Sequence record: PZ386975.1
Origin: a phage
Strand: one strand, 5' to 3'
Length of the DNA stretch: 64,000 bases
Both the position numbers and the translations under genes were made by a program. The number at the start of each line of letters is the position of its first letter. Within the stretch, counting starts at the first letter, position 1. The notes beneath the pieces are model-generated. The model saw only the letters and a list, made by a program, of their open reading frames with translations. It did no database searches and had not been told where the DNA came from. This document shows, in pieces, positions 4,163 to 37,338 of this stretch.

Positions 4163-4498
4163 ATGAAAATCAAAGAGATGAACATCAACGTTGTCTTAGA
4201 AGAACGTTGGGAGAACATTAAGAAGCCTGAAGATGGTAAAAAGTTCCTTAACAAAATTTTAGTAGCAGCTAAAGAAGAACTGACTGGGAAGATTGCAGCA
4301 GCAATCACAATAAAGGTTTGTGTAAAAGGTCTTCCACAACATCACCAGTTTGCTCTTGACGAGTTTAAAGAAAGCTTCTACAATCCAAATAAACAGATGC
4401 TTGAAAGTAACTTTGCAGTATCTACAAGTATCGTTCATGACAGAAGCTTTATCCTTTACAAAAACATGAGAGGTGAGTCATGCAAGCATATTGGATAG
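4163..4498 (+). CDS. hypothetical protein (111 aa)
   Basis: ORF with RBS after rho-independent terminator 4123-4146. Confidence 0.5.
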   Translation: MKIKEMNINVVLEERWENIKKPEDGKKFLNKILVAAKEELTGKIAAAITIKVCVKGLPQHHQFALDEFKESFYNPNKQMLESNFAVSTSIVHDRSFILYKNMRGESCKHIG

Positions 4499-4684: not shown

Positions 4685-7051
4685 ATGCGCATGGTAAACG
4701 ACCACGCAGAAGTGATTAAGAGTTCAACTTCTTTGGAGACATCTCAAGCACAGATTACAATGACACCTGAAATGTTCAGCCTTTTAAGTTCAGGTGTATA
4801 CACATTTAAAGAAAGGGCAGTGATTCGTGAACTGTCATGTAACGCAGTAGATGCTCAAAAAGAAGCTGGAAAAGAGAACATCCCATTCCATGTGCATTTA
4901 CCTACTCGATTTGAGCCTTACTTTGAAGTCCGTGACTTTGGAACTGGTTTAACCCATGACAAAGTAATGAGTTTGTATCTGAACTATGGGGCTTCTACGA
5001 AGAATGACTCCAATGATTACATTGGTGCAATGGGTATCGGCTCAAAATCCCCATTTGCAATTGCTCAGTCATTCACAGTATCTAGCTATGTTGATGGTGT
5101 TGTTAATAAGTACTCTGTTTACCTTGAGAATGGTATCCCTCAAGTAACTAAGCTTACTACCAACCCAACAAATGAACCCAATGGTTTAGCTGTACGTGTA
5201 GCAGTTGCTGACCATCGTATTTCAAAGTTCTTTGAAGAGGCTGGTCACGTATACTCATACTTTGCTGTAAAACCAGAAAGTAACGTTGTATATGATGATG
5301 TATTAGCAGATATGAATGTCATTGCCCGTGAAGAGGGTGTTTATGATGCTATGATTCATAAGCAAAGCTGGCGTTCTAGTGGCAACAGGACAGAGTTTAA
5401 TGTGGTGATGGGTAATATTGCCTACCCAGTGAACATGGAAGCATTACTTGGTGATGATTTCTTCAAAGTCTTGCCAGAGTTTTTCCGTAGGAGCGTAGAC
5501 CTTGTAAACATCTACATGCCTATTGGTTCAGTGGCTATTGCAGCTTCTCGTGAAGCATTGCAGATGAATGACACGACAAAAAATGTTATCATTGAGGCTA
5601 CTAAAAAGATAACTGAAGCCATTACAAAGGATGTTATCAAGAAAGTTAACAGCCAACCTACACTCATGGATGCTGCACAGGCTTATGCTGAGTTACGTTT
5701 GAACTCACGAGAGATGTTTAATGCTGTGTGTCCAAAGCTAGAGTGGGGAGGCGTTAAGCTTGATTCTCTGGAAGAAGAATTACTAAACATTCGTCGTGGG
5801 ATTATCTACGCAGAAGACGGCTCAGTCATTTATGAACGTGACGGTAAAGGTAATATCAAGGTTGATAGGAACGGGAACAATATCCCTAAAGTGGATTATC
5901 TTTATAATCCAGTTGCTTATGTCAAGTTCAACTCTTTAGAGAGTAAGATTCGTGCAACAGCACTTTCCTACACTCAAGAGGCAAGTATGTTCAATATCTT
6001 TGGTGCAATGCGTAAAAGCCAAATTGAACAGTTTTTGTTCGTGATTAATGACCGTCGTAATAAAAATGGCACTGAGAAGACTGTAGGCCGCAATCAGATT
6101 CTGCGTGGTGCATGTCGAGACTACGCTAACGAGTCAAGCCTGTTCCACAGATACAATGGTATTGTGTTTGTATTCTCGACTGAAAAAGAGTTAGATGATT
6201 TAATCAATCTGCATAAACTTGATAAAAGTTTGTTAAAGATTGTGAAGATGTCTGATAAGGAACACCATTATCAGCGTAAAGAAGCTGTGAGGGGTGTTGT
6301 AAAACTCTGGAAAGCTGTTCCATCAGAAACTAAAGCTTCATACACAGAGGTGTCAGAAGACCTAGATACAATTGAAGAACCCCAGCTTTATATCAAGGCA
6401 GTAGGCGACACAGTTGATGGTGAATGTTTTTGCTCATCCCCAGAAGATGTAGCTAAAACAATTGCTAATGTTATAGGAAAAACAGTCTATGTTTTCCGAA
6501 AAGCAAATTGGAAAAAGATACCAGAAGACTGGATTGAAGTAGATGAGAAGCTATTGAATGACAGCTTAACTGATGTTCACTGGATTAATCATAACAGGTA
6601 TATGACACGTATCTATATGAATGGTGTCCTTGACCTTACAAGTAGTTGGATTATTGCCAGAAACTTTACGTTTAATAACAAGAAGATTTCTCGCGGGTAT
6701 TGCTATTCACGAGATACAAACAAAACCATCTTCTTAGAAGGTAATGAGAATGCTGTTGAGGCAATGTTTGGTAAGATTCAGTATGTGGCTGCACCGTTTG
6801 CATACACTTACACTATCAGTGTTCTTCAGGATTTGAAGTCATGCCTTGACAATGATACAAAACTGTACAAAAAGATTAAGAAAGCGGGTGACCGCATGGT
6901 TATCAAACTGACAAACTACCTTTCAAAAAGAAAACAAGAAAACTTCTTGCTTTCCCATTTAGATTGGAATAAAGTGTCACCCATCGAAGTGAGTAAGTTC
7001 TTAGGCTTTGATGTGAAGTGTGTTCCAGAAGGGACTACAATTTACGATTAA
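4685..7051 (+). CDS. rIIA: rIIA-like protein with N-terminal GHKL (Bergerat-fold) ATPase domain
   Basis: N-box ELSCNAVDA, G1 box VRDFGTGL, G2 box GAMGIGSKSPF; 788 aa; followed by candidate rIIB. Confidence 0.6.
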   Translation: MRMVNDHAEVIKSSTSLETSQAQITMTPEMFSLLSSGVYTFKERAVIRELSCNAVDAQKEAGKENIPFHVHLPTRFEPYFEVRDFGTGLTHDKVMSLYLNYGASTKNDSNDYIGAMGIGSKSPFAIAQSFTVSSYVDGVVNKYSVYLENGIPQVTKLTTNPTNEPNGLAVRVAVADHRISKFFEEAGHVYSYFAVKPESNVVYDDVLADMNVIAREEGVYDAMIHKQSWRSSGNRTEFNVVMGNIAYPVNMEALLGDDFFKVLPEFFRRSVDLVNIYMPIGSVAIAASREALQMNDTTKNVIIEATKKITEAITKDVIKKVNSQPTLMDAAQAYAELRLNSREMFNAVCPKLEWGGVKLDSLEEELLNIRRGIIYAEDGSVIYERDGKGNIKVDRNGNNIPKVDYLYNPVAYVKFNSLESKIRATALSYTQEASMFNIFGAMRKSQIEQFLFVINDRRNKNGTEKTVGRNQILRGACRDYANESSLFHRYNGIVFVFSTEKELDDLINLHKLDKSLLKIVKMSDKEHHYQRKEAVRGVVKLWKAVPSETKASYTEVSEDLDTIEEPQLYIKAVGDTVDGECFCSSPEDVAKTIANVIGKTVYVFRKANWKKIPEDWIEVDEKLLNDSLTDVHWINHNRYMTRIYMNGVLDLTSSWIIARNFTFNNKKISRGYCYSRDTNKTIFLEGNENAVEAMFGKIQYVAAPFAYTYTISVLQDLKSCLDNDTKLYKKIKKAGDRMVIKLTNYLSKRKQENFLLSHLDWNKVSPIEVSKFLGFDVKCVPEGTTIYD

Positions 7052-7130: not shown

Positions 7131-8240
7131 ATGACTATTAAAACTAAAGCACAGATTGACGCAGAAATTTACAAACTGGTTAAAGAGGGTAAGCTGACTA
7201 AAACAGCTATTGCACAGAAATTTAACACCTCAACCCGTTCAGTCGGTCGTGCTGTAGAGCGTCATGAAGCAACCTTAAAAGGTAAGAAAAAGGTAGCTTC
7301 TAAACCAGCTACGAAGACTTTGAAGCAAGTTGCTAAATCAGTTAAAAAGAAAGCTGGAAAACCAGTTGAAAATGTTGTTAAAGAGACTGTACAAAAGGCT
7401 CCGGTAAATAAACTACACGAAGCTATGCAGAATGGTAACCAGATTGAGTATATGATTACTGGCGATTCTGTTATCATGACTTTCGGTGCAGATTCTGAAA
7501 TCGTTGAATCTACCCATCCGAACTACAAAGAAATCGTAATGGCTGTTGTATCCGGTGAGTATAAGAAAGCTTTCGAACTGATGAACATTCGTAAATCTAT
7601 CGAAAACTTCACTCAGGGTGCTATCACCATCAAAGGTGACAAGTTATTCTACGGTACTGTTGAGATGCGTTCTACTCTGGTTGACCGTATTCTTCACATG
7701 ATGAAGACTGGAGATAAAGGTTTTGAACGCCTTGTGATGTTCTTCGAAAAACTGATGGAAAACCCATCTAAAGACTCTGTAGAACAACTTTGGGGCTTTG
7801 TATCTCACCTTGATGTTGAAATTGATGAAGAAGGCTACATCATTGGTTGGAAGAAAGTCTCTACTCGTGAAGGCAAGCTGGTTGACTCCCACACCTACAA
7901 AGTACCTAATGATTTGGGTAACATTGTAGAAATGCCACGTTGGATGGTTGATAACAACCGTAACGTGACTTGCTCTCAAGGTCTTCATGTTGGTGCTTGG
8001 GACTATGTTCGTTGCTTCTCAGGTGATACAATCCTGAAGGTTCGTGTCCATCCACGAGATGTTGTATCTGTTCCAACTGATTACAACGATATGAAGATGC
8101 GTTCGTCTCGTTATGAAGTTGCAGCAATCGTTGATAATCAACGTAAAGTGCTGAAAGCATGGGATGGCAAGACTGAAGCTTTGCATGTCATCGTTGGCAC
8201 TGCTGGAGAACTTATCTCCCAACGTAAACGTGAAATCTAA
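7131..8240 (+). CDS. rIIB: putative rIIB-like protein (369 aa)
   Basis: size and position immediately after rIIA-like gene; no motif confirmed. Confidence 0.35.
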   Translation: MTIKTKAQIDAEIYKLVKEGKLTKTAIAQKFNTSTRSVGRAVERHEATLKGKKKVASKPATKTLKQVAKSVKKKAGKPVENVVKETVQKAPVNKLHEAMQNGNQIEYMITGDSVIMTFGADSEIVESTHPNYKEIVMAVVSGEYKKAFELMNIRKSIENFTQGAITIKGDKLFYGTVEMRSTLVDRILHMMKTGDKGFERLVMFFEKLMENPSKDSVEQLWGFVSHLDVEIDEEGYIIGWKKVSTREGKLVDSHTYKVPNDLGNIVEMPRWMVDNNRNVTCSQGLHVGAWDYVRCFSGDTILKVRVHPRDVVSVPTDYNDMKMRSSRYEVAAIVDNQRKVLKAWDGKTEALHVIVGTAGELISQRKREI

Positions 8241-18925: not shown

Positions 18926-18949
18926 AGCCCCTTAAATGGGGCTTTTTTA
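18926..18949 (+). terminator. rho-independent terminator ending the plus-strand early block
   Basis: AGCCCCTTAAATGGGGCT followed by TTTTTT; another hairpin at 18894-18912. Confidence 0.6.
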
Positions 18950-20640
18950 CGTCTATCAAATTCCTTTCCAGAATCTTAAAACCCACCTAACAAGTCAGAA
19001 CTTTACCAATGATTCGATAGAATCTATCTCATACCTTAAAAAGCAATAACTCTATAGTCTACTCTATAGCCTTTTATCAAATCAACTTAAATATAAGCCC
19101 ATAACCCGAAAGGGAAGGGCAACCACTAAAACGCTCTATAAAGCTCTATAACAGCCTTATCAACCTAACTTAATGGATTGCATTAACCCACCTTAAAAAG
19201 CTCTTTACAGGGCTTTATAGAGACTTAAAAGAATCTTATAAGGTTATAAGCTTTATTATCTCGTTAGCTATCTTGTGAACTACTAAAAAGGGCTATGAGA
19301 TAGGACTCTATGAGGGGTAATTCATTACCTGAATCACTATCAAATCCTATTGTTATTGTCTTAAAAGTATGTTATATGGGTTTGAAAGTAGCTTAAAAGT
19401 TACGTAAATGCTAGCCCCCTTAACATTTTCTTAACAATTTCTTAACAAACCCTACATAGCTATGCTTGTTAGCCCCTTGTTAAATTTCTGTTAAGACCAC
19501 GTAAAAGCCTTGTAAGAGTCTTTGGCATAGCCTTAAAAGCCCCTGTAAAGCCCTATAAAGAGCTATCCATACAGTTGAGGGGTAAATACTAGGAAGAGGC
19601 TTAAAAGAGCCTATAAAGAGTTATAGAGAGCTTTTAAAAGGTATGTTTAAGGAATCACTAAGAAAGGAAAGGGAACGATAAGAGAAGAGAGTTGTGTTTG
19701 TAAACAACCACTGTGACCATGTTAACAGCTTGTTAAAAAGATTAAACACTTGTTAGAAGCTTGTTAATTATCTTAATTGGTATTGTTACCAATCCCTAAC
19801 AAAATAACTCTTCAAAATTAACTTGTTAGCTCTTGTTAGTCATCTGTTAAGACTCTGTAAAGCCCTATCAAGCCTTGTTAGAAAACTGTTACAGCCTTGT
19901 TAGTTCTGTTGAGAAACTGTTAAGACCTTTGAAGAATTGTTAAGAAGATGTGAGAATTGTTAAGAGATTGTTAAGGATATTTTAAAATTCTGCAAAGGGG
20001 ATGTTACAGGGATGTTAAGGGCTACCAAGCAGATATACATCTTCTACAGATATTTTTGAGTTCCTTCAAAGACCCTAAAAAAAATGACTTGACAGTCCTA
20101 TTTTATAAAAATTTTAAGATTCTGAATAATTACCTATACAGCCTTTTAAAAATACAGGTAATAACAGGCTTATAAGATACCTTGTTAGTACCGTGTTAGA
20201 CCTTGTGAGATAAGGTCTGTGAAGATATTCCTGTTAAGTTTGTTAAAACAGTCTATATAGAGGCTTAGTAATACCTAGTGAACACCTATAGAGAGTGTCA
20301 TAGCTGACATAGAGATTAAGAGGTGTATAGGAGCTTCTAAGAGGATGTAGAGAGATGGTTAAGGTGATTGTATAGGTTGTTAAGAAGGCTTGTTAGAAGA
20401 GTGTTTAGAAGGATTGTTAGAGGGCTTGTTAGAAGGGTTATACAGAGGGGCTATTAAGACCACTAGATAGTTACTAAGATACTATATAGTACTATATAAC
20501 TATATAGAGAGTAAGATTAAGAAGGTTGTTAAGAAGGGTAAATATTTTATTCACATATGATGGTGACCCAGAGGTTGGGACAACCGATAAAATTTTATAA
20601 AAATTAAAAAGCCCCCAATTAAGGAGGCTCTCAAGATATT
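18950..20640. repeat. 1.7-kb non-coding, AT-rich region with dense short repeats (YTGTTAR iterons at about 11-bp spacing; CTATAAAG/CTTTATAG motifs; ACTATATA repeats)
   Basis: no ORF of 60 aa or more on either strand; about 30 TGTTAR copies, densest at 19800-20030 and 20370-20450. Confidence 0.7.
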
Positions 20641-21264
20641 TTAAATCAGGCTTTCTAAAACTGTCTTCAGGGATGACTTAGTTGTCTGATAAAAATGAGT
20701 GAATCCGTTGTTATTATCGAATATCTGCATCATGACAGCATCCCCCTTGATTGGATACACTCGGATATCATAGTGAAACCCATTAAAGACAGCAGAACCA
20801 TTACAGAATACACTAAAATCACTTGCTGAGATATACTCTTCATGACCTGTGATTTTTATACAGACACCTTTACTTGGTCTCTTAGGGTTGATATCTTCCA
20901 TAATAGACATACTCTGCCCACCAAGAGATACCATCGTGACCACTTTACGGTTCTTCTGTTTAAAGTACATCTTAACTTTCTGCAAAGTGTCTTCATAGAA
21001 CGGATAAGACTTCTCTACAAATATTCCTTCAAGTGGCTCTTTACCATTTTCAACTTCTCTGGTATGTCGTACTGCAAAGATAATTTGTTGGAACCAGTCA
21101 AGATTTTCTTCGGAGAGTGCTTCCCGAATATCATTCCAGTCAAGGACTAGGTAGTTACCTTCAACTTCTTTTAAGTTATCTTTTTCCATATCTATCACAC
21201 CATTATCGTAAAACTTGATATTCTGGTACTGCGAATTTATTACTATTGTTCTTGATGAGGTCAT
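20641..21264 (-). CDS. hypothetical protein (207 aa)
   Basis: ORF in minus-strand block. Confidence 0.5.
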   Translation of the reverse strand: MTSSRTIVINSQYQNIKFYDNGVIDMEKDNLKEVEGNYLVLDWNDIREALSEENLDWFQQIIFAVRHTREVENGKEPLEGIFVEKSYPFYEDTLQKVKMYFKQKNRKVVTMVSLGGQSMSIMEDINPKRPSKGVCIKITGHEEYISASDFSVFCNGSAVFNGFHYDIRVYPIKGDAVMMQIFDNNNGFTHFYQTTKSSLKTVLESLI

Positions 21265-21667
21265 CCTCTGAAACTAAAAATGTAATACCACATAAGTGTC
21301 TGTAACGACTATCATACTCGAATATCTTAAACAGATATTTACCATCATGATAAACCTGTTGCACTTCACCTTCTGCAACAATCTCGCCTGTAATAAAATT
21401 TTTTAGTTTATACACATTACCAACTTTAGGTACTGTTTTCATCTCAGGCTCTTTTAGTGCTACACCTATTTTTGCATCACCGAGTAAATGAGAACTCTCA
21501 AAAGCTACGTGTTTCATATAAGCTTCTGAGCATTCCCAAATAAAACAATGTACAAGAACCTTAGCAGCATGTCTTGAGCAGTTCAACTTATCACAAATTT
21601 CTGTGTACATCTCATCTTTAGTAGAATTGTCAAGCATTGCTCTTTGCACTACTTCTTTAATTTTCAT
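21203..21667 (-). CDS. hypothetical protein (154 aa)
   Basis: ORF in minus-strand block. Confidence 0.5.
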   Translation of the reverse strand: MKIKEVVQRAMLDNSTKDEMYTEICDKLNCSRHAAKVLVHCFIWECSEAYMKHVAFESSHLLGDAKIGVALKEPEMKTVPKVGNVYKLKNFITGEIVAEGEVQQVYHDGKYLFKIFEYDSRYRHLCGITFLVSEDDLIKNNSNKFAVPEYQVLR

Positions 21668-28002: not shown

Positions 28003-28374
28003 ATGAAAAACAGAACAAACAAAGGCCAGTTTAAAAAAGGCCAGTCTGGAAACCCATCTGGAAGACCAAAAGGCTCTCGTAACAAAAGCTCACTCGTAAA
28101 AGCTCAACTGACCATTGATAATTCTGCTGAGTTTGCTGCAAAGCTGTTTGAGGCGATTGTTACAAGGGATGCTGCTAAGCTTGCAGAGTTCGGGTTAAAC
28201 ACAGACGATGTAACCATCAAGAGTATGATTGAGGTCGGTAAAACTATCATGACTCACTCAGCAGGTGAGATGAAAGCAATTGCAGCAGACACTAAGAAGA
28301 CTCCTGATAATGGTGGTCAAACCCAGACAGATAACAAACCAACGTTCTCTGCTGTAGCGACTCTCAAAAAATAA
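28003..28374 (+). CDS. hypothetical protein with basic N-terminus (GNPSGRPKGSRNK motif), possibly nucleic-acid binding
   Basis: ORF with Lys/Arg-rich N-terminal region. Confidence 0.5.
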   Translation: MKNRTNKGQFKKGQSGNPSGRPKGSRNKSSLVKAQLTIDNSAEFAAKLFEAIVTRDAAKLAEFGLNTDDVTIKSMIEVGKTIMTHSAGEMKAIAADTKKTPDNGGQTQTDNKPTFSAVATLKK

Positions 28375-30036: not shown

Positions 30037-30113
30037 CTCTGTTTAGCTCAGCTTGGTAGAGCGTTCCGTTTGGGGCGGTAAGGCCGGAGGTTCAAGTCCT
30101 CCAACAGAGACCA
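30037..30113 (+). tRNA. tRNA-Pro (anticodon UGG)
   Basis: acceptor CTCTGTT/AACAGAG, T-arm GGAGGTTCAAGTCCTCC, encoded CCA. Confidence 0.6.
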
Positions 30114-30130
30114 AATTTAAAGGGGTTACT

Positions 30131-30487
30131 ATGAGATTTTTAAAAGAATGTCCAGTTCATGGTTTAACTGAACATAGCATTCATAAGAATGGTAACGCCG
30201 GTAATAGAGTAAATTGTCTAAAATGTTGTGCATTAAGGACAAAACTTAGAGAGGATGCCAATAGGGAGAAAGCATACAAGTTTTATGGCGATAGTTGCAA
30301 AATTTGTGGCTATAATAAATGTAAAAATGCTTTAGAATGGCATCACCTTAACCCAAACGAAAAAGAGAATACACCATCAAAAATTATGGGTGCATCTTGG
30401 GAAAAGGTTAAAAAAGAACTTGATAAATGTGTTTTGCTCTGTGCTAATTGCCACAGAGAGGTTCATAGTGGAATTACAACGGTTTAA
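30131..30487 (+). CDS. HNH endonuclease
   Basis: Cys-rich Zn motifs (CLKCC, CKICG) and WHHLNPNEK...CANCHREVH HNH core; start moved to ATG 30131 because the track ORF overlaps tRNA-Pro. Confidence 0.75.
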   Translation: MRFLKECPVHGLTEHSIHKNGNAGNRVNCLKCCALRTKLREDANREKAYKFYGDSCKICGYNKCKNALEWHHLNPNEKENTPSKIMGASWEKVKKELDKCVLLCANCHREVHSGITTV

Positions 30488-30488
30488 T

Positions 30489-30563
30489 GTCGTAGAAGGC
30501 AAATGGTTAGCCACCTGACCTTCAATCAGTTGCTCGCAGGTTCGAATCCTGTCTACGACACCA
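30489..30563 (+). tRNA. tRNA, anticodon uncertain (loop CCTTCAA, possibly UUC/Glu)
   Basis: acceptor GTCGTAG/CTACGAC, T-arm GCAGGTTCGAATCCTGT, CCA. Confidence 0.45.
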
Positions 30564-30567
30564 GTTT

Positions 30568-30646
30568 TGACAGAAGACCAATTACAGCAAACTTAATCTT
30601 ATTCATCTGAAGGTAAATCGGACAAAGAAGAGATTTGGTCTGGTCA
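30568..30646 (+). ncRNA. structured RNA element Y1: conserved bulged helix (outer 4 bp TGAC/GTCA, internal loop AGA opposite G, inner AGACCAA/TTGGTCT)
   Basis: inverted repeat with covarying outer helix; shares motif CAGAAGACC..TACAGCAA with three paralogs. Confidence 0.4.
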
Positions 30647-30655
30647 TTAAGAATT

Positions 30656-30731
30656 GCGGGTATAGAGAAAGGGCGTCTCACATGTCTCATTAGCATGGTA
30701 TCGGCAGGTTCGACTCCTGCACCCGCCTCCA
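30656..30731 (+). tRNA. tRNA with anticodon CAU (Met or Ile2)
   Basis: anticodon stem CATGT/GCATG with loop CTCATTA; T-arm GCAGGTTCGACTCCTGC; acceptor has one mismatch. Confidence 0.45.
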
Positions 30732-30734
30732 ATT

Positions 30735-30800
30735 TTGCAGAAGACCGTATTCAGCAACAAACTACTTTTTGCGGATAAAAGAAAAAACACGGTCTGGCAA
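30735..30800 (+). ncRNA. structured RNA element Y2 (outer TTGC/GCAA, inner AGACCGT/ACGGTCT)
   Basis: same bulged-helix architecture as Y1 with compensatory changes. Confidence 0.4.
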
Positions 30801-30808
30801 TGTATTAA

Positions 30809-30885
30809 GGTTAGGAAGCACATAAGGTATGTGCGGTCGCCTGTTAAGCGAATGGCACAGGGTTCGAATCCCTGACTAACCGCCA
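30809..30885 (+). tRNA. tRNA-Asn (GUU)
   Basis: anticodon loop CTGTTAA, T-arm CAGGGTTCGAATCCCTG, G73, CCA. Confidence 0.55.
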
Positions 30886-30954
30886 AATTTAGGAGAGAAG
30901 CGATTGCTCACCGATTTGTAAGGTGCAAGTCCTTAGCCTGAATAGAAATTAAAT

Positions 30955-31042
30955 GTGTCGTTATCCCGTAGATGGTAGCGGTGGGGACTGTAAATCCCTT
31001 GTCATTGAGACTCGGTAGGTTCGACTCCTACACGGCACACCA
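30955..31042 (+). tRNA. tRNA-Tyr (GUA), long variable arm
   Basis: anticodon arm GGGGACTGTAAATCCCT; 88 nt; acceptor GTGTCGT/ACGGCAC. Confidence 0.6.
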
Positions 31043-31047
31043 ATAAA

Positions 31048-31125
31048 GGTTATGTAGTTTAATTTGGTTAAAATACTCCCCTGTCACGGGAGATGATGAG
31101 GGTTCAAATCCCTTCGTAACCGCCA
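31048..31125 (+). tRNA. tRNA-Asp (GUC)
   Basis: anticodon stem CTCCC/GGGAG with loop CTGTCAC; CCA. Confidence 0.6.
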
Positions 31126-31151
31126 ATTTTGAGAGGGCTATTTAGCCCCTC

Positions 31152-31186
31152 CCTTAAAGGGTTCTTACGAGTATCCTTTAAAGGAG
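31152..31186 (+). repeat. conserved palindromic hairpin CCTTAAAGGGTTCTTACGAGTATCCTTTAAAGG
   Basis: related copies at 34182-34208 and 32003-32030. Confidence 0.5.
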
Positions 31187-31265
31187 CAGAAGACCAAATA
31201 CAGCAAGAACGTATGAAAATTTCAAGCCAATTTAATTTTGAAAAATTTAAAACTTGGTCTGGCTC
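31184..31265 (+). ncRNA. structured RNA element Y3 (outer GAGC/GCTC, inner AGACCAA/TTGGTCT)
   Basis: same bulged-helix architecture. Confidence 0.4.
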
Positions 31266-31272
31266 AACAAAT

Positions 31273-31409
31273 TTACAGAAGACCGTTTACAGCAAAACTT
31301 AAACAATCTATTTCTCGGTAAAGAAAAGGCGAAGGTTCGATTCCTTCACTCGGCAGATGTCGAGTTGGTGTAATGGTAGCACTTAAGATGATAAACAACG
31401 GTCTGGTAA
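31273..31409 (+). ncRNA. structured RNA element Y4 (outer TTAC/GTAA, inner AGACCGTT/AACGGTCT) enclosing a circularly permuted tRNA-like module; Y-RNA/YrlA-like candidate
   Basis: T-arm GAAGGTTCGATTCCTTC (31331-31347), then 3' acceptor strand ACTCGGC, 5-nt linker, 5' acceptor strand GTCGAGT and D-arm TGGTGTAATGGTAGCAC. Confidence 0.45.
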
Positions 31410-31553
31410 TTATCTTTGTAGATAAGTTATTAAGCTTACCTGTGAGTATGCGACCACAAAGGGTGAAAGGGTAAATTCTAGATTTAAACCCAAAAAGGCA
31501 CATCGCTACAGACCTTAAGCAAGTCTGGGTAGCTTATCTACAAAGATAATTTA
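31405..31553 (+). repeat. 19-bp perfect inverted repeat TAATTATCTTTGTAGATAAG / CTTATCTACAAAGATAATT flanking about 108 nt
   Basis: arms at about 31405-31425 and 31534-31553, between Y4 and tRNA-Lys. Confidence 0.55.
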
Positions 31554-31555
31554 AT

Positions 31556-31631
31556 GGAAGTGTAGCAGAATGGTGATGCGGCAGACTTTTAATCTGACAG
31601 GCGATGGGTTCGAATCCCTCCACTTCTACCA
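31556..31631 (+). tRNA. tRNA-Lys (UUU)
   Basis: anticodon loop CTTTTAA; acceptor GGAAGTG/CACTTCT; paralog of tRNA at 32785. Confidence 0.5.
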
Positions 31632-31635
31632 AAAT

Positions 31636-31712
31636 GGTTCAGTCGCAGATAAGGTAATTCAAGGGTCTCATAAGACCTATGAATGTGGGTTCGATTCCCA
31701 TCTGAACCTCCA
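31636..31712 (+). tRNA. tRNA with anticodon CAU (Met or Ile2)
   Basis: acceptor GGTTCAG/CTGAACC, loop CTCATAA, T-arm GTGGGTTCGATTCCCAT. Confidence 0.5.
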
Positions 31713-31714
31713 AT

Positions 31715-31789
31715 TGTGGGTTAGCATAAATGGTAATGCAAACGGCTGATAACCGTTAGAAGAGGGTTCGATACCCTCACCTACAACCA
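31715..31789 (+). tRNA. tRNA-Ile (GAU)
   Basis: D-stem GCAT/ATGC, anticodon stem AACGG/CCGTT with loop CTGATAA. Confidence 0.6.
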
Positions 31790-31804
31790 ATTTCAATAAA
31801 GTTG

Positions 31805-31833
31805 TTGACATTGAGATGTGACTACTTTATAGT
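31805..31833 (+). promoter_or_regulatory. sigma70-like promoter TTGACA-17-TATAGT inside the tRNA cluster
   Basis: -35 at 31805-31810, -10 at 31828-31833. Confidence 0.5.
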
Positions 31834-32036
31834 AACCTTAGTTTTCGTTGCGTAGCGTCTATTTTGCAAATTTAAAATAAATGCAAACGACAATGTTTTT
31901 CTGGCAGTAGCTTGATAGGCTAAACACCAGTGAGGTCTTCCAATCCCTCATCAAAGAATTTGGCGTACTAGCCCACGGTATGATTAATAAAGTGGGCATC
32001 TTTAAGGGCTTTCTAAGAGAGTCTTTAAAGATTAAT

Positions 32037-32113
32037 GCACCCTTAGTTCAATTGGATAGAGCAACGGTCTTCTAAATCGTTAGTTACAGGTTCGAATCCT
32101 GTAGGGTGTACCA
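32037..32113 (+). tRNA. tRNA-Arg (UCU)
   Basis: anticodon loop CTTCTAA, T-arm ACAGGTTCGAATCCTGT. Confidence 0.6.
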
Positions 32114-32256
32114 ATTTAGTTAGCAGAATACTTAGACGACCTAAGCGGGTCTTCCTGTAGGGAGGTGGTCTGTATCTCATGTTTTCCAGAACATGTAAAT
32201 AATCTGAGAAGGGGCTTTACAGTGTTGAGATAATACGGTAAGCTTCGAATTATAGT

Positions 32257-32339
32257 ATGGGACGATGTTAAGACTCTAAGGCATGAGCAACGGATTCCAA
32301 CACCGTTTCAAAGGGGTTCAACTCCTCCGTCCCATGCCA
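32257..32339 (+). tRNA. atypical tRNA (83 nt, enlarged D region), anticodon possibly CCA (Trp)
   Basis: acceptor ATGGGAC/GTCCCAT perfect; anticodon region AACGG-ATTCCAACA-CCGTT. Confidence 0.4.
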
Positions 32340-32352
32340 AAGTCTTATTAGG

Positions 32353-32442
32353 GGTAGGTAGCGGCTAATGGTAGCCAAACTGTCTTGAAAACAGTTGCCA
32401 CTGTAGAGATACGGTGAGGGTTCGACTCCTTTACTTACCGCC
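32353..32442 (+). tRNA. tRNA-Ser (UGA), long variable arm
   Basis: anticodon stem ACTGT/ACAGT with loop CTTGAAA; 90 nt. Confidence 0.55.
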
Positions 32443-32698
32443 TAATAAGATTTTAAAGCCAAGCTTCATTCGGATGTTGCTTTGGTATCCCTCGTGTATT
32501 GTCGTACACACAGATAAAGCACCTAGTAGGTGTCACGGAGAAGAGATAATATCAAGCTCTCCAAAGGTTCTAGTCACCGGATTAAACAAGACTATGCAAA
32601 GACCTTTTTAGGTCTTTTTAGAGGGCTTCTAAGGTTATTACAGCTTGTTGTGGAACCTTGTTGCTTAGGTTCTTAGAAGTTCTCTAAAAAGATTTAAT

Positions 32699-32777
32699 GG
32701 GAGATTGACGGCAACTTGGTAGACCTATCTCGCTTAGAACGAGATGCTTGAGGGTTCGAATCCCTTGTCTCCTACCA
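32699..32777 (+). tRNA. tRNA with anticodon UAG (Leu-type) but short variable arm
   Basis: anticodon stem TCTCG/CGAGA with loop CTTAGAA; T-arm GAGGGTTCGAATCCCTT. Confidence 0.45.
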
Positions 32778-32784
32778 AATTAAT

Positions 32785-32860
32785 GCAGGTGTAGCAAAAT
32801 GGTTATGCGGCTGACTCTTAATCAGTAAGACGATGGGTTCAATTCCCTCCACCTGTACCA
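32785..32860 (+). tRNA. tRNA-Lys (CUU)
   Basis: anticodon loop CTCTTAA; paralog of 31556. Confidence 0.5.
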
Positions 32861-32866
32861 GACATT

Positions 32867-32943
32867 GGGGATGTAGTTTACATGGTTAAAACATAAGTTT
32901 TGCAAACTTAAGTACAGGGTTCAATTCCCTGCTTCTCCACCAA
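32867..32943 (+). tRNA. tRNA-Ala (UGC)
   Basis: D-stem GTTT/AAAC, anticodon stem TAAGT/ACTTA with loop TTTGCAA. Confidence 0.55.
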
Positions 32944-32949
32944 TTAGTG

Positions 32950-33023
32950 CATCCATAGTTTAAACGGGAAAATTACAGTCTTCCAAACTGAGGTTGAGGG
33001 TTCGATTCCCTCTGGATGCTCCA
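32950..33023 (+). tRNA. tRNA-Gly (UCC)
   Basis: acceptor GCATCCA/TGGATGC perfect; loop CTTCCAA. Confidence 0.55.
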
Positions 33024-33029
33024 AACAAT

Positions 33030-33106
33030 GCTGCTTTCGTATAATTGGCTATTACACATCCCTTGTAAGGATGGAAATGCAGGTTCGAGTCCTGTGAGCA
33101 GCACCA
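33030..33106 (+). tRNA. tRNA-Thr (UGU)
   Basis: anticodon stem CATCC/GGATG with loop CTTGTAA. Confidence 0.6.
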
Positions 33107-33109
33107 ATT

Positions 33110-33170
33110 CAGAGGTCAAGTGAAAGACCGCTGGTGTCAACTGAAGACCGTAACAAATTCCACGGAGTTG
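33110..33170 (+). ncRNA. fifth, more divergent stem-loop element containing the GAAGACCGT motif
   Basis: outer inverted repeat AGAGGTC/GACCTCT enclosing ..CTGAAGACCGTAACAAA.. Confidence 0.3.
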
Positions 33171-33201
33171 AGTTAGCGGCACAACTTCAGACCTCTTTCA
33201 T

Positions 33202-33276
33202 ACTCGCTTAGTTTATATGGTAAAACACCACCCTTACAAGATGAAGAAAAAGGTTCAAGTTCTTTAGTGAGTACCA
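33202..33276 (+). tRNA. tRNA, anticodon uncertain (loop CTTACAA, possibly UAC/Val)
   Basis: acceptor ACTCGCT/AGTGAGT, D-stem GTTT/AAAC; weak anticodon stem. Confidence 0.4.
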
Positions 33277-33277
33277 T

Positions 33278-33355
33278 GTTCCAGTATCCCAATTGGCAGA
33301 GGATGCAAGCTCAAACCTTGTACTAGTGACGGTTCGAATCCGTCTTGGAACACCA
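33278..33355 (+). tRNA. tRNA with anticodon CAA (Leu-type) but short variable arm
   Basis: anticodon stem GCAAG/CTTGT with loop CTCAAAC; T-arm GACGGTTCGAATCCGTC. Confidence 0.45.
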
Positions 33356-33374
33356 ATTTTAAGAGGCTATTTAG

Positions 33375-33932
33375 ATGAGATACTTAAAGTATGCTTCATG
33401 GATTTTCTTAGCTTTGTTAGAGCCATTTGCAGCAATCTTAGCAGTTATCTTAGCACCTTTTGTAGTTCCATTCTACAGTGAGAAGAAAGGACACTTACCT
33501 TTCGGGTTCAGATGGATGGAGACATATGACAACCCAATTGATGGTGATGAAGGTCACGTTAAAAGATGGGCTAATATTAGATGGATTGGTAAGCTGGGTG
33601 TCTACATGCAGAGAGTTGGATGGCTCTGGAGAAACAAAGCTTATAATTTCTCTTACCATGTATTAGGAAGAGATGTAAAAGATGTTACTAAGTGGAAAGG
33701 TAATATCAACGTAAGTTCTGACCCTGAAGATAATCAGACTGGTTATCTCCTAATGTGGAACAGTAATGCTTGGGGATTATTCGCTTTTATTCCGTCAATT
33801 AAAATCTTTGGTAAACAGTTTTACTGGAGAATTTATGTTGGATGGAAACTAAAAAGTGTTGTCCCAGAAGAAAGAGCATTCTCAAGGGAAAGAGTTATGT
33901 TGGCATTCTTTATTCATCCGCTGAGAAAGTAA
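33375..33932 (+). CDS. hypothetical integral membrane protein (185 aa) embedded in the tRNA cluster
   Basis: RBS AAGAGG; N-terminal hydrophobic helices; Trp-rich. Confidence 0.55.
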   Translation: MRYLKYASWIFLALLEPFAAILAVILAPFVVPFYSEKKGHLPFGFRWMETYDNPIDGDEGHVKRWANIRWIGKLGVYMQRVGWLWRNKAYNFSYHVLGRDVKDVTKWKGNINVSSDPEDNQTGYLLMWNSNAWGLFAFIPSIKIFGKQFYWRIYVGWKLKSVVPEERAFSRERVMLAFFIHPLRK

Positions 33933-33940
33933 AGATTTAA

Positions 33941-34016
33941 AGGGGATTAGTTTACAAGGTTAAAACCTCGGTCTTTGAAATCGAAGAAGTTGGTTCAATT
34001 CCAACATCCCCCGCCA
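33941..34016 (+). tRNA. tRNA-Gln (UUG)
   Basis: anticodon loop CTTTGAA; weak 1-72 pair. Confidence 0.55.
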
Positions 34017-34018
34017 AT

Positions 34019-34096
34019 GCTCCATTACTCCAATTGGCAGAGAGGCCAGACTTAAAATCTGTGTTATGTATCGGTTCGAATCCGATATGGAGTACC
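34019..34096 (+). tRNA. tRNA with anticodon UAA (Leu-type) but short variable arm
   Basis: anticodon loop CTTAAAA; T-arm ATCGGTTCGAATCCGAT. Confidence 0.45.
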
Positions 34097-34101
34097 AATT
34101 T

Positions 34102-34177
34102 TAGCGGTATAGCATAACTGGCAATGCAACAGTCTCTGAAGCTGTCCTATTAAGGTTCAAATCCTTATGCCGCTGCC
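34102..34177 (+). tRNA. tRNA-Gln (CUG)
   Basis: D-stem GCAT/ATGC, anticodon stem ACAGT/GCTGT with loop CTCTGAA. Confidence 0.55.
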
Positions 34178-34209
34178 ACTTCTAAGGATTCTTACGAGAG
34201 TCCTTAAAT

Positions 34210-34285
34210 GTGGCCTTATCATAAATGGTAATGACCCATGCTGTGAACATGGTCTATACGGGTTCGACTCCCGTAGGTCACCCCA
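34210..34285 (+). tRNA. tRNA-His (GUG)
   Basis: anticodon stem CCATG/CATGG with loop CTGTGAA; discriminator C73. Confidence 0.6.
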
Positions 34286-34291
34286 ATTTAT

Positions 34292-34367
34292 AGTCCAAGT
34301 AGCTTATATGGTTAAAGCGCGTGTCTGAAAAACATGAGAAGAGGGTTCAAATCCCACTGGACTACCA
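34292..34367 (+). tRNA. tRNA-Phe (GAA)
   Basis: D-stem GCTT/AAGC, anticodon loop CTGAAAA; acceptor boundaries approximate. Confidence 0.5.
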
Positions 34368-34383
34368 ATTTCAAAGGTGCTTA

Positions 34384-35118
34384 ATGAAAGAGATGACAGA
34401 ACAAGGTAAGGAGATTTTTAATCTCTTAAAAACCGGTAAAGGGTTTTCTAACCCACTTATTACTGGTGCAGCAGTTCTCGGTGGAACCGTAGCTGCCTCT
34501 ACATCACTTGTAAGCTCCATTAGCTCTGTAACAGACCCTACAATGAAGGAGAAGCTTGTTGCTGCTGGACTTACAACAGTCCTTCTAAACAGCTTTACAA
34601 CAAGCCTGACAAGCACTACAGCAACTACTAAGACCCTAACAGACTATGGTCAAAAGTCTATTGATGAGTTTTCATCACGTATGCAGGTAGCAAAGGGGTA
34701 TTCCAATGTTATGGGTGCAGCAGGAGAACAAGTTGGTTGTACACCATTCAGTGGTATTATGGGTGTTGCTACAGAGTATGGTCAAAAAGCTATTGACATG
34801 ATGAACAGTACACTAGATAGTGTTAACGGTGTGTTAAGTGACTTACAAGACGCTATTGATAAGGGTCTTGCTACTGTTTCTGATTTAGCTAATCAGGCTG
34901 TTAGTAAGATTAATGAAGGTATCTCAAAGATTACAGCTTATGCAGATGAAGTTGTGCAGATGATTGAAGAAGAAGCTGCCCTTATTGCAGAGTACCTTAA
35001 AACGAATATCAATGGGTTCTTAGCAGGTATCTTACCAGACTGGTTTGATGATGCTTGTAAAACTGGTGTAATCGACACTATTGCAACACCAGAAATGAAG
35101 AACGCATTACAGAAATAA
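34384..35118 (+). CDS. hypothetical Ser/Thr/Ala-rich protein (244 aa)
   Basis: start moved to ATG 34384 (RBS AGGTG) because the track ORF start overlaps tRNA-Phe. Confidence 0.5.
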   Translation: MKEMTEQGKEIFNLLKTGKGFSNPLITGAAVLGGTVAASTSLVSSISSVTDPTMKEKLVAAGLTTVLLNSFTTSLTSTTATTKTLTDYGQKSIDEFSSRMQVAKGYSNVMGAAGEQVGCTPFSGIMGVATEYGQKAIDMMNSTLDSVNGVLSDLQDAIDKGLATVSDLANQAVSKINEGISKITAYADEVVQMIEEEAALIAEYLKTNINGFLAGILPDWFDDACKTGVIDTIATPEMKNALQK

Positions 35119-35119
35119 T

Positions 35120-35212
35120 GGAAGATTAACCCTAAAAGGTAAGGGAGCAGTTTGCTAAACTGCCAGTAGCTGAGAAATCGGTGTACCAGTTCAAGTCTGG
35201 TATCTTCCTCCA
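35120..35212 (+). tRNA. tRNA-Ser (GCU), long variable arm
   Basis: acceptor GGAAGAT/ATCTTCC, anticodon stem GCAGT/ACTGC with loop TTGCTAA; 93 nt. Confidence 0.6.
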
Positions 35213-35216
35213 ATTT

Positions 35217-35292
35217 GAATCCGTGACAGAAATGGATATGTGCCTGTCTGCAAAACAGGTTTATAAGGGTTCAAGTCCCTTCGGATTCTCCA
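35217..35292 (+). tRNA. tRNA-Cys (GCA)
   Basis: acceptor GAATCCG/CGGATTC perfect, anticodon stem CCTGT/ACAGG with loop CTGCAAA, U73, CCA. Confidence 0.65.
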
Positions 35293-35715: not shown

Positions 35716-35736
35716 TTCTATTTGCGGAGGCGCTTA

Positions 35737-37338
35737 ATGGACTTAAATGCTGTTAAGCAGAAGCGAGTGGAAGATGTTAGGAAAGTCCTAGCTGGAGAGT
35801 TGGGGCTTTCTGATGAAGTAAAAGAAATTATCAAATCATTCGGTAAAGACCCCTCTAAATTCCTTCCAACTCAAATTCTGACTTTATTAAGATACACACC
35901 AGACCAAGTTCGCCTTATCTTTAAATTGATGACTGATAAGAACTATGTAGCTCCTCAGCCGGGTTCTCAAGAGGTCTTTTTAAACACTAATGCTGACTTG
36001 GTTCTCTATGGTGGTGCTGCTGGTGCTGGTAAGACTGCTGCATTGTTAATGGACTCTCTAAGATTTATTGAAGACCCTAACTATAATGCTGTGTATTTCC
36101 GTCGAAACACAACACAGTTACAAGGTGGTTTATGGCCTGCTGCAAAGAAACTATTTGGTAAGTTTGGTGGGATTCCTCACGAGCAGAAAATGACTATCAC
36201 ATTCCCTTCTGGGGCAACTATCAAGTTTACCTACCTAGAACTTGAAAAGCACGCTGAAGGTCATCAGGGTATTGAATACTCAGCTATTTACTTTGACGAA
36301 GGTACACACTTCTCTGCTTCACAGATTTCATACCTACAAACACGTCTTCGTTCTGGTGCTGAAGGTGATTCATACATGAAAATTTCCATGAACCCAGACA
36401 GAGACCACTTTATTTATGATTGGGTAGAACCATTCTTAGATGAAGAAGGTTATCCAGACCCTGAAAAGTGTGGTCGTATTCGTTGGTATGTAATGAATGA
36501 TGGTGTGATGGTTTCTGATTGGGAGAGAGACAAGATTCTTGAAATGTTCCCTCTTGAGATTCCTCAAACATACACCTTCATCTCTGGTACGATTGATGAT
36601 AACCCAATTCTTGACTTCTTAGAACCTAAGTACCGTGGTAAGTTGGAAAACAACACCCCTGTAAACGTTGCAAGGCTTCGCTTCGGTAACTGGAAAGCTC
36701 GTGCAGAAGGTTCAAACTATTGGCAAAGACAATGGTGTGAGATTGTTGATTCACTCCCAGAGGATGTATTTGATGTTAGAGCATGGGACTTAGCAGCAAC
36801 TTTACCATCTGAAATTAACCCTAATCCAGACTGGACAGCAGGTGTTAAGATGGGTAAATCTAAAAAAGACGGTTGCTATTATATCATTGATGTAGTAAGA
36901 TTTAGAGATAGACCCTCTGGAGTCGAAACACAAATTAATTTGACTGCTGAAAGTGACGGTAAGCGAACTGGTATTTTTATCCCTCAAGACCCAGGCGCTG
37001 CTGGTAAATCCTACGCAACATCCCTCATCAGGAAACTTGCCGAGAAAGGCTATCGTGCAAGAGCTAAACCAACAAATAAAGATAAAGTTACCCGATTTGC
37101 GGGGTTTTCTGCTGCTTCTGAAGCTGGACTTGTAAAAGTTTTGAGAGGTAGTTGGAACGAAGCTTATTTCCAAGAGCTTGAAGGTTTTTGTGGTGATGGC
37201 AAAACTAAAGATGACCAAGTGGATGCTACCAGTGATGCTTTCAACAGTCTTAACGAAGTTAAATTATTCAAGCCACCATCAATGGGTGCTCACACAGACT
37301 TAGTGAGAGGAAACCCATATGAGGGGCTTAGACGTTGA
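35737..37338 (+). CDS. terL: terminase large subunit
   Basis: Walker A VLYGGAAGAGKTAAL, Walker B-like IYFDEGTH; ATG 35737 with RBS GCGGAGG (track start is TTG). Confidence 0.85.
   Translation: MDLNAVKQKRVEDVRKVLAGELGLSDEVKEIIKSFGKDPSKFLPTQILTLLRYTPDQVRLIFKLMTDKNYVAPQPGSQEVFLNTNADLVLYGGAAGAGKTAALLMDSLRFIEDPNYNAVYFRRNTTQLQGGLWPAAKKLFGKFGGIPHEQKMTITFPSGATIKFTYLELEKHAEGHQGIEYSAIYFDEGTHFSASQISYLQTRLRSGAEGDSYMKISMNPDRDHFIYDWVEPFLDEEGYPDPEKCGRIRWYVMNDGVMVSDWERDKILEMFPLEIPQTYTFISGTIDDNPILDFLEPKYRGKLENNTPVNVARLRFGNWKARAEGSNYWQRQWCEIVDSLPEDVFDVRAWDLAATLPSEINPNPDWTAGVKMGKSKKDGCYYIIDVVRFRDRPSGVETQINLTAESDGKRTGIFIPQDPGAAGKSYATSLIRKLAEKGYRARAKPTNKDKVTRFAGFSAASEAGLVKVLRGSWNEAYFQELEGFCGDGKTKDDQVDATSDAFNSLNEVKLFKPPSMGAHTDLVRGNPYEGLRR

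Follow-up and report, generated by a model that had tools for sequence, protein, structure and literature searches.

The 64,000 nucleotides of phage DNA in record PZ386975.1 (the window) contain a gene-free region of 1.7 kb, at 18950-20640, that is crowded with copies of the motif TGTTA. We conclude that this region is very probably the concatemer junction of an Ounavirinae phage, composed of a direct terminal repeat (DTR) of approximately 615 bp and the unique noncoding flanks on either side of it, with the TGTTA arrays acting as a packaging platform. Judged by sequence, the source phage is a Felix O1-like myovirus of the Ounavirinae: when 18900-20660 was used as a query, 257 phage records matched at 80-92% identity, and nearly all were Felixounavirus or phages of Escherichia, Salmonella, Shigella, and Citrobacter. 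That a terminal repeat of about 600 bp lies at this place is already known, experimentally in one relative and by annotation in a few records, and concatemer junctions that carry arrays of short repeats have a known precedent in T7. In the searchable literature, we found no description of phase-locked TGTTA arrays, of mirror-image boundaries with an inverted left triple, or of conserved cut-site blocks. Nor did we find there a description of the flanking repeat families of Felixounavirus DTRs, of conservation across four genera, of a quantitative match to the ArcA box, or of the DUF5681 protein as a small terminase candidate.

The gene-free region contains a direct terminal repeat

The region lies where two transcription units converge. 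A sequence-only reading of the window had described 18950-20640 as free of open reading frames (ORFs) of 60 codons or more and as sitting between the 3' ends of a plus and a minus block. Both descriptions were accurate, as the longest ORFs are 37, 42, and 39 amino acids, the plus block stops at 18887, the minus block stops at 20641, and a terminator-like hairpin lies beyond each stop. The two hairpins face the region and bracket 18950-20605, and these flanking terminators were all that was of note in a promoter and terminator scan. The gap corresponds to the convergent junction at genes 23/24 of Felix O1, and the gene layout agrees with the four transcription units described for that phage (PMC3185647). 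The features at the edges are as follows.

Ending at 18887 (about 18.9 kb), plus strand: early-gene block
18926..18943, plus strand: intrinsic-terminator-like hairpin closing the early-gene block, kept in 11 related phages
20607..20632, minus strand: intrinsic-terminator-like hairpin closing the minus block, from the promoter and terminator scan
20.6-27.8 kb, minus strand: minus block, with its 3' end at 20641

Records of relatives place physical genome ends inside the region. In a search with the wider query, some records began or ended there, Pr103Blw among them. The first 581 bp of Pr103Blw are annotated as a "short direct terminal repeat region," and an identical copy is found at the other end of the record. 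UAB_69 carries a 618-bp "DTR" feature at the corresponding position. When the repeat alone was used as the query, it was found at 254 places in 228 records, and therefore 26 records contain two copies. Moreover, at least 8 of 60 sampled records have ends within 2 nt of the boundaries (Ro111lw, pEP20, SeKF_63, ECP2307, H12, GE_vB_B1, MET-P1-301, and Pr103Blw). In the Felix O1-like phage UAB_Phi87, a DTR of 608 bp was determined by Bal31 digestion and run-off sequencing (PMC4837284), and the 581-bp DTR of Pr103Blw was determined by PhageTerm (PMC8303462). In homologues, the two physical ends carry one and the same sequence (Pr103Blw, the 26 two-copy records, and UAB_Phi87), and the ends are fixed and nonpermuted, with independent records agreeing within 2 nt and boundary sequences that are invariant or nearly so in 11 phages. 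The literature also places the large terminase in a clade of DTR-making enzymes (PMC4837284).

The record of UAB_Phi87 (JN225449.1) is opened elsewhere, and the boundaries were therefore taken from UAB_69 and Pr103Blw. In the alignment, the left boundary reads GTAAATGC/TA/GCCCCCTTAACA and falls at 19412 by UAB_69 or at 19414 by Pr103Blw, and the right boundary reads GGGCTACC/AA/GCAGATATAC and falls at 20026 or 20028. The DTR appears once in the window because assembly collapses the two end copies. As the region contains the DTR, it contains both cleavage sites of the concatemer junction, and the mapping therefore divides the 1.7 kb into three parts.

18950..19411, no strand: right-end flank, unique noncoding DNA that lies in the virion just inside the right-end copy of the repeat
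19412/19414-20026/20028, no strand: DTR, boundaries placed by homology to within 2 nt on either side
20029..20605, no strand: left-end flank, unique noncoding DNA just inside the left-end copy of the repeat

Both neighboring transcription units head toward the genome ends and halt at terminators before them. Among the roles that the sequence-only reading had put forward, a packaging site gained support from the terminal repeat, and an origin, a partition site, and a small-RNA locus did not find support. The DTRs of UAB_Phi87 (608 bp), Pr103Blw (581 bp), and UAB_69 (618 bp) are the same element: at 84-89% identity, they share its boundary sequences and lie between the same two convergent gene blocks. 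Reports on these DTRs give the length and existence of the repeat only, and the list of repeats in the Felix O1 genome paper is confined to those of 24 bp or more, all of which lie elsewhere in the genome.

TGTTA motifs are phased along the repeat

The sequence-only reading had counted about 30 copies of YTGTTAR at roughly helical-turn spacing, together with other repeat families. Indeed, 28 of the 92 copies in the whole window fall inside the region (23 on the plus strand and 5 on the minus strand), where about 1.7 would be expected from the rest of the window. The core pentamer, TGTTA/TAACA, occurs 39 times, with about 5 expected. The other families are enriched but small: CTATAAAG occurs three times, CTTTATAG once, and ACTATATA three times, and all of the window copies of ACTATATA are in the region. 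The helical spacing turned out to be stronger than claimed. Base autocorrelation over the whole 1,656 bp had maxima at lags of 10-12, 20-22, and 31-32 (z of about 7 versus other windows of equal size), and the region as a whole has a periodicity of about 10.6 bp. The ordered parts of the DTR are the following.

19420..19448, minus strand: outward-reading TGTTAA triple with exact 11-bp spacing, set 8 nt in from the left end of the repeat
19466..19495, plus strand: TGTTA triple with 11-bp spacing, inverted relative to the first and separated from it by 17 nt
19719..20017, all but one unit on the plus strand: main TGTTA array, with 17 exact cores, or 20 when TGTAA and TGTGA are included
20023..20039, no strand: TACCAAGCAGATATACA, which spans the right boundary of the repeat and is invariant in 11 phages

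The outward triple is kept in all 11 aligned phages and is recognizable in the distant Erwinia phage phiEa21-4, and relatives have one or two additional 11-bp units in the inverted triple. The main array advances in steps of 9, 10, or 11 bp, or in double steps, with a net period of 10.40 bp (R=0.89-0.91), and it stops 9-11 nt short of the right boundary. When all plus-strand TGTTA cores between 19460 and 20020 (560 bp) were considered, they followed one period of 10.45 bp (R=0.85), whereas R was just 0.23 at 11.0 bp and about 0.6 at the 99th percentile of a random null. Locally, TGTTA pairs are 11 bp apart, and occasional steps of 9-10 bp hold the set on one helical face. With a net period of 10.45 bp, the TGTTA units therefore stay on a single face of the helix for more than 500 bp.

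The two ends of the repeat mirror each other. The left end carries TAGCCCCCTTAACA and the right end carries TGTTAAGGGCTA in inverted symmetry, and 19420-19457 forms a 38-nt inverted repeat with 19948-19985 (79% pairing, or 91% over a 22-nt core). The sequence TACCAAGCAGATATACA at the right boundary is presumed to be the right cleavage site. The flanks have repeats of their own. The left-end flank contains TGTTAG clusters in 12-bp steps at 20182-20246 and 20377-20432, TATAGAG units, a triple of ACTATATA at 20481-20510, and invariant blocks at 20098-20116 and 20164-20206. CTCTATA, CTATAAAG, CTTAAAAG, and CTGTAAAG occupy the right-end flank and the central part of the repeat, and TATAGAG, the reverse complement of CTCTATA, occurs mainly on the left-end flank beside the ACTATATA triple.

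Direct repeats at helical spacing in noncoding DNA are typical of iteron origins. The region, or a part of it such as the left-end flank, might then be a replication origin of the plasmid or lambda type, in which the iterons are bound by a phage initiator, but we consider this very unlikely. The spacing of the repeats agrees with such an origin, the left-end flank includes invariant blocks of unexplained role, one of them the A+T-rich CTATTTTATAAAAATTTTA at 20098-20116, and by our reading of PMC3185647 the replication origin of Felix O1-like phages is not known. The repeats and the 1.6 kb of DNA that they span, however, far exceed what an iteron origin needs. Iteron origins also have an adjacent initiator gene, a DnaA-box cluster, and an A+T-rich unwinding element. 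Here, the adjoining ORFs match only families of unknown function and no initiator-like neighbor was found, no Rep-like domain is present among the 25 listed of 41 families matched by the 65 ORFs of the window, the only DnaA-box-like 9-mer carries one mismatch, and no 60-bp window reaches 80% A+T. GC skew had been suggested as a check for an origin or terminus. Both GC and AT skew follow gene orientation only and therefore say nothing about either. Finally, the arrays coincide with the physical ends of the genome, and the conserved noncoding region is therefore already explained.

The arrays are conserved across four genera

Eleven phages of three lineages were aligned.

Felixounavirus: the window phage, Andreotti, finno, Pr103Blw, UAB_69, and Felix O1
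Mooglevirus: Mordin, Silverhawkium, and SFPB
Suspvirus and an unclassified relative: SUSP2 and pEC-M719-6WT.1

Over the region, identity to the window is 91-93% within Felixounavirus and 77-80% in the Mooglevirus/Suspvirus group. For neighboring coding DNA, identity to the latter group is 65-77%, with parts that cannot be aligned, and the adjacent 207-amino-acid protein is about 50% identical. The right-end flank, 18950-19411, is the least conserved of the three segments (0.60 identity to Mooglevirus/Suspvirus). Conservation is concentrated in the motif, as TGTTA cores have 0.805 identity to the distant group versus 0.679 for the other positions of the region (permutation p=0.005). Spacers between cores vary freely, and indels are whole units of 11 bp or 22 bp. 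The 17-nt TACCAAGCAGATATACA at the right boundary and TAGCCCCCTT at the left boundary are invariant in the aligned phages, and a phase lock of 10.2-10.5 bp is present in 11 of 11. We note that blocks of 19-28 nt without TGTTA are also invariant in all 11 phages (20098-20116, 20164-20206, 20483-20510, and 19224-19243), with CTATTTTATAAAAATTTTA and ACAGGCTTATAAGATACCTTGTTA as examples. Such blocks could contribute to the packaging signal, serve in ejection or replication, or act as a promoter that is not of the sigma-70 type.

The layout recurs in four genera, the most distant case being phiEa21-4 (Kolesnikvirus). At the equivalent convergent junction, phiEa21-4 has a gap of 1.4 kb (1.44 kb) with an outward TTAACA triple after TTAGCCAC, TGTTAAG arrays on the plus strand, and AAGCAGATATACA at the right as in the window. 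Its right-end flank is built from a different unit, CTTCTAAG. By analogy, the repeat of phiEa21-4 is predicted to be about 444 bp long, at roughly 17027-17470 of the phiEa21-4 stretch (L010), running from TTAGCCAC... at the left to ...CTAAGCAGATATACA at the right. Conservation of the repeats in related phages had been named beforehand as a test of function, and their retention across four genera favors function.

A scan of IMG/VR for TGTTAA-N5-TGTTAA-N5-TGTTAA returned diverse contigs, and among the matches listed, only Ounavirinae reached 22-26 cores per 600 bp. The triples in unrelated contigs indicate that the motif is not unique to Ounavirinae. Two of these contigs, L148 (169 kb, at 7380-7540) and L150 (at 10860-10975), contain three TTAACA at 11 bp, a gap, and three TGTTAA; neither contig has a match among cultured phages. 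The L148 module ends in ...TGTTAAGGGCTGCC, a near-match to the right-boundary sequence, and the gap that contains it is 650 bp long and precedes a sigma-factor-like gene.

Perhaps the region encodes small noncoding RNAs or serves as a promoter or operator, a possibility that we regard as extremely unlikely. Several observations fit such a role: the hairpin at 19097-19120 is conserved, with a compensatory change in SUSP2; the words CTTAAAAG and CTGTAAAG are common to the terminal region and to promoter-like blocks upstream of early genes; and the inverted TGTTAA modules of the two unrelated IMG/VR contigs are upstream of genes. An Rfam scan of 18000-21500, however, returned noise only, with best scores of 25 and 21 bits at the region edges against gathering thresholds of 55 and 36. 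Promoter-like sites number 11 in the region and 10.9+/-3.4 in shuffles, and both flanking transcription units terminate facing the region. Moreover, conservation follows the motif, with unit indels of 11 or 22 bp, and does not follow structure. The hairpin itself, GCCCATAACCCGAAAGGGAAGGGC, has a GAAA loop, and the change in SUSP2 is in its outer stem (GCCA...TGGC).

A model for packaging and its counterparts in other phages

Genome ends formed by a short exact repeat mean that terminase makes its cuts in the concatemer at two set positions and that the intervening DNA is duplicated. Starting from the observed position of the repeat, the conservation of its boundaries, the phasing of the motif, and the selective conservation of the motif, we propose the following. 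Terminase would cut concatemers at ...GTAAATGC/TAGCCCCCTTAACA... and ...TGTTAAGGGCTACCAA/GCAGATATACA..., and duplication of the repeat between the cuts would leave a copy at both ends of every virion DNA. The cut sites would be marked by the outward triple at the left boundary and by the inward array that ends at the right boundary. The TGTTA units would be a platform for a multimeric recognition protein that wraps or loops the DNA and positions the large terminase, and the reader of the repeats would most likely be the phage small terminase. We infer that what one would expect of such a platform is matched here: motifs that keep to one side of the helix for hundreds of base pairs, selected cores with drifting spacers, and mirror-image arrays that abut the cut sites.

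T7 provides the closest counterpart in kind. T7 cuts at two fixed sites and duplicates its terminal repeat. Like the region, the T7 junction is a short exact repeat in noncoding DNA, and its arrays, which were taken directly from the T7 record, comprise 13 CCTAAAG units, all of one orientation, which lie within the 160-bp repeat and to either side of it. The T7 units, however, have a different motif, are 12-13 bp apart and not helically locked, and come without an inverted boundary module, and the repeat described here is four times the length of that of T7. In addition, the T7 junction is flanked by the phage RNA polymerase promoters phiOL and phiOR, and Felix O1-like phages, unlike T7, do not encode an RNA polymerase (PMC3185647). 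We note that the T7 units (CCTAAAG, CATAAAG, and CTTAAAG) and the words CTATAAAG, CTGTAAAG, and CTTAAAAG (19130-19630 of the window) all end in TAAAG, which may be a coincidence.

Phased boxes at about one helical turn near a cleavage site also occur in the R sites of lambda cosB, with IHF, and in pacL/pacR of SPP1. In both phages, a small terminase oligomer recognizes the boxes and bends the DNA or wraps it. Lambda and SPP1 differ from the window phage in that they make cohesive ends or headful cuts rather than exact terminal repeats, and in that they have a handful of boxes, whereas the region has about 40, for which binding is predicted. The IHF core consensus has no match in the region.

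A candidate small terminase

The Felix O1 genome paper reported a large terminase, and a small terminase was missing. A Pfam scan of the 65 window ORFs matched a short protein to DUF5681, and we consider this protein a reasonable candidate for the small terminase on the basis of its family and gene neighborhood. Its gene is the first of the late plus-strand block, which comprises the 24 tRNA genes, the large terminase, and the structural genes and is followed by another minus block.

28003-28371 (feature 28003..28374), plus strand: DUF5681 protein, 123 amino acids (PF18932, E=2e-14), first gene of the late block
30037-35292, plus strand: 24 clustered tRNA genes, downstream of the DUF5681 gene and upstream of that for the large terminase
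35722..37338, plus strand: large terminase (TerL), phrog_979 "terminase large subunit," E=8e-234

The basic N terminus of the DUF5681 protein, FKKGQSGNPxGRPKGSRNK, is almost invariant among homologues. Twenty-seven unrelated IMG/VR contigs have a DUF5681-like ORF of about 110 amino acids, and in 26 of them an ORF of at least 300 amino acids follows directly, usually overlapping and usually of 380-450 amino acids. Nine of 10 downstream ORFs tested are large terminases (Terminase_3 or T7 type). In a marine relative from Tara Oceans (L217/L218), a DUF5681-like gene is 1.9 kb upstream of TerL. We note that this relative retains the order of genes, with a minus-strand lysis block followed on the plus strand by a small gene, the DUF5681-like gene, a gap, TerL, a Mu-type portal gene, and a protease gene. 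The structural model of the DUF5681 protein has three helices at low confidence (pLDDT 67, pTM 0.37), and the protein has no match among PDB sequences or NCBIfam.

Several points weigh against the packaging interpretation and its candidate reader. The ends of this particular phage are inferred from homologues. Likewise, the TGTTA motifs are putative protein-binding sites with a putative role in packaging, and their reader is a proposed one. The DUF5681 gene of the window is 7.3 kb upstream of TerL, albeit co-oriented with it and part of the same block. The link between DUF5681 and terminase is one of gene neighborhood in distant phages, the likeness is mainly in the first 40 or so residues, and the structure model is poor (pLDDT 67). 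The model also leaves parts of the flanks unexplained, namely CTATAAAG/CTTAAAAG, TATAGAG, ACTATATA, and the blocks at 20098-20116 and 20164-20206. Finally, the TGTTA units fit the site of a host regulator unusually well.

Resemblance to ArcA sites

The arrays might instead be bound by a host response regulator of the OmpR/PhoB family, for which phosphorylated ArcA (ArcA-P) is the best fit. The regulator, acting alone or as an accessory factor like IHF at lambda cos, would coat or bend the terminal repeat and so tie the processing, protection, or pairing of ends, or local transcription, to redox state. We think this unlikely. ArcA-P sites of E. coli are TGTTA direct repeats 11 bp apart, and most chromosomal sites have 2-5 repeats (PMC3798270, PMC4173790).

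The resemblance is quantitative. With an 18-bp matrix built from 115 published in vivo E. coli ArcA boxes, hits of at least 10 bits numbered 21 in the region, 51 in the other 62 kb, and 1.8+/-1.4 in dinucleotide shuffles, and hits of at least 15 bits numbered 7, 4, and 0.11, respectively. Per kilobase, the region has 12.7 hits and the remainder of the window 0.82. The best scores, 22.7 and 22.5 bits, fall on the left-boundary triple (19420-19448) and exceed the training maximum of 21.5. Pairs of half-sites have a sharp optimum at 11 bp, with 20 pairs there and 6 or fewer at any other spacing. High scores were obtained in 12 of 12 phages, including phiEa21-4, in which 19 of the 25 hits in 45 kb are in the 1.44-kb gap, and the hosts (Escherichia, Salmonella, Shigella, Citrobacter, and Erwinia) are all Enterobacterales. 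Among the families listed (25 of 41 matched, E<5e-4) for the 65 phage ORFs, none is an OmpR-type winged helix. This negative is weak because 16 of the 41 families were not listed.

Like the ArcA-P sites of icdA, astC, and others, the region has the TGTTA core, direct orientation, 11-bp pairs, and multiple repeats, with scores that equal or exceed chromosomal ones. Chromosomal sites, however, have 2-5 repeats with A+T-rich spacers at promoters, whereas the region has tens of repeats with mixed spacers, at a genome end, and outside any promoter context. Its runs of up to about 15 units follow a period of 10.45 bp over 560 bp, and R at 11.0 bp is 0.23. Close to half of the units have the form CTTGTTAG or CTGTTAAG, with spacers rich in G/C, and score just 10-14 bits. 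Ordinary laboratory culture is, we assume, aerobic, with little ArcA phosphorylated. As the phages are isolated and propagated in such culture, ArcA-P would not be essential. Furthermore, the comparable terminal arrays of T7 are built from another motif and give no ArcA-like hits, which suggests that readers are phage specific, and no link between ArcA and Felix O1-like phages was found in the literature. The marine relative has 540 bp of noncoding DNA at the end of its contig, in which there are no TGTTA arrays, other repeats are present (CCTTGCTTTT... and two copies of GTGAGAAAATTGCCAAATCTCGTA), and GATC occurs. That DNA cannot separate a host reader from a phage reader.

In its boldest form, the resemblance would make the DTR of Felix O1-like phages a super-array for ArcA-P, or for a sister regulator of the OmpR/PhoB family, that senses the anaerobic state of the gut at chromosome ends. 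Such an array would tune end processing, end protection, or recombination. We hold this to be quite unlikely, and we favor the DTR with a platform read by the phage small terminase.

Other features of the region and the genome

Two short palindromes differ in position from phage to phage in the noncoding DNA. The first, AATTGGTATTGTTACCAATCCCT, is a 23-bp mini-insertion at 19774-19796 of the window that is predicted to form a DNA hairpin of -4.7 kcal/mol (z=-5.3). Individual phages carry 0-3 copies of it, and at least five noncoding sites are occupied in all, one of them by an inverted copy; in other phages, copies lie at the equivalents of 19119, 19274, 19658 (inverted), and 19823. In this respect, AATTGGTATTGTTACCAATCCCT behaves like a tiny mobile element. 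The second, GATTCGATAGAATCTATC, is at 19008-19036 of the window, at 4210-4235 of the SUSP2 stretch (L009), and at 5832-5854 of the Mordin stretch (L008), and its place and presence vary by phage. In SUSP2, it lies within the loop of the plus-block terminator.

Small early genes are preceded by repeated intergenic blocks of uniform design at 15615-15715, 16120-16222, 16405-16512, 17930-18034, and 18545-18644. Each has a promoter-like TTGACA/TTTACA-N17-TAAATT/TAAAGT, followed by a G/C hairpin and then by a conserved leader with GGAGAT and ATG. The blocks correspond to the 57-bp and 39-bp direct repeats of the Felix O1 paper.

GATC is absent from all 64 kb of the window, where 176+/-14 sites would be expected from dinucleotide shuffles and about 213 from a Markov estimate. 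It is likewise missing from every related Ounavirinae stretch examined, including 45 kb of phiEa21-4. This absence points to strong selection across the subfamily against targets of Dam, MutH, or SeqA or of restriction enzymes that cut at GATC. The hexamers ATGCAT, CAGCTG, and GGTACC are also absent from the window, with 10-15 of each expected.

Implications for Felix O1-like phages

Felix O1 is a classic phage of Salmonella typing and biocontrol, and few coliphages are isolated more often than its relatives. Many GenBank records of these relatives are opened at arbitrary points, and the region carries in them only spurious small ORFs or an unlabelled "repeat_region." Ends fixed at conserved sequences give a simple rule by which such genomes can be oriented and annotated, as well as correct termini for rebooting or cell-free synthesis and a defined packaging signal for transducing particles. 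A phase-locked array of about 40 motifs and a concrete small terminase candidate are now accessible to experiment, and together they raise the question of how concatemers are recognized and cut in a myovirus whose terminal repeats are short and exact. Should the resemblance to ArcA sites reflect real binding, the maturation of phage genomes would be tied to host physiology in a novel way.

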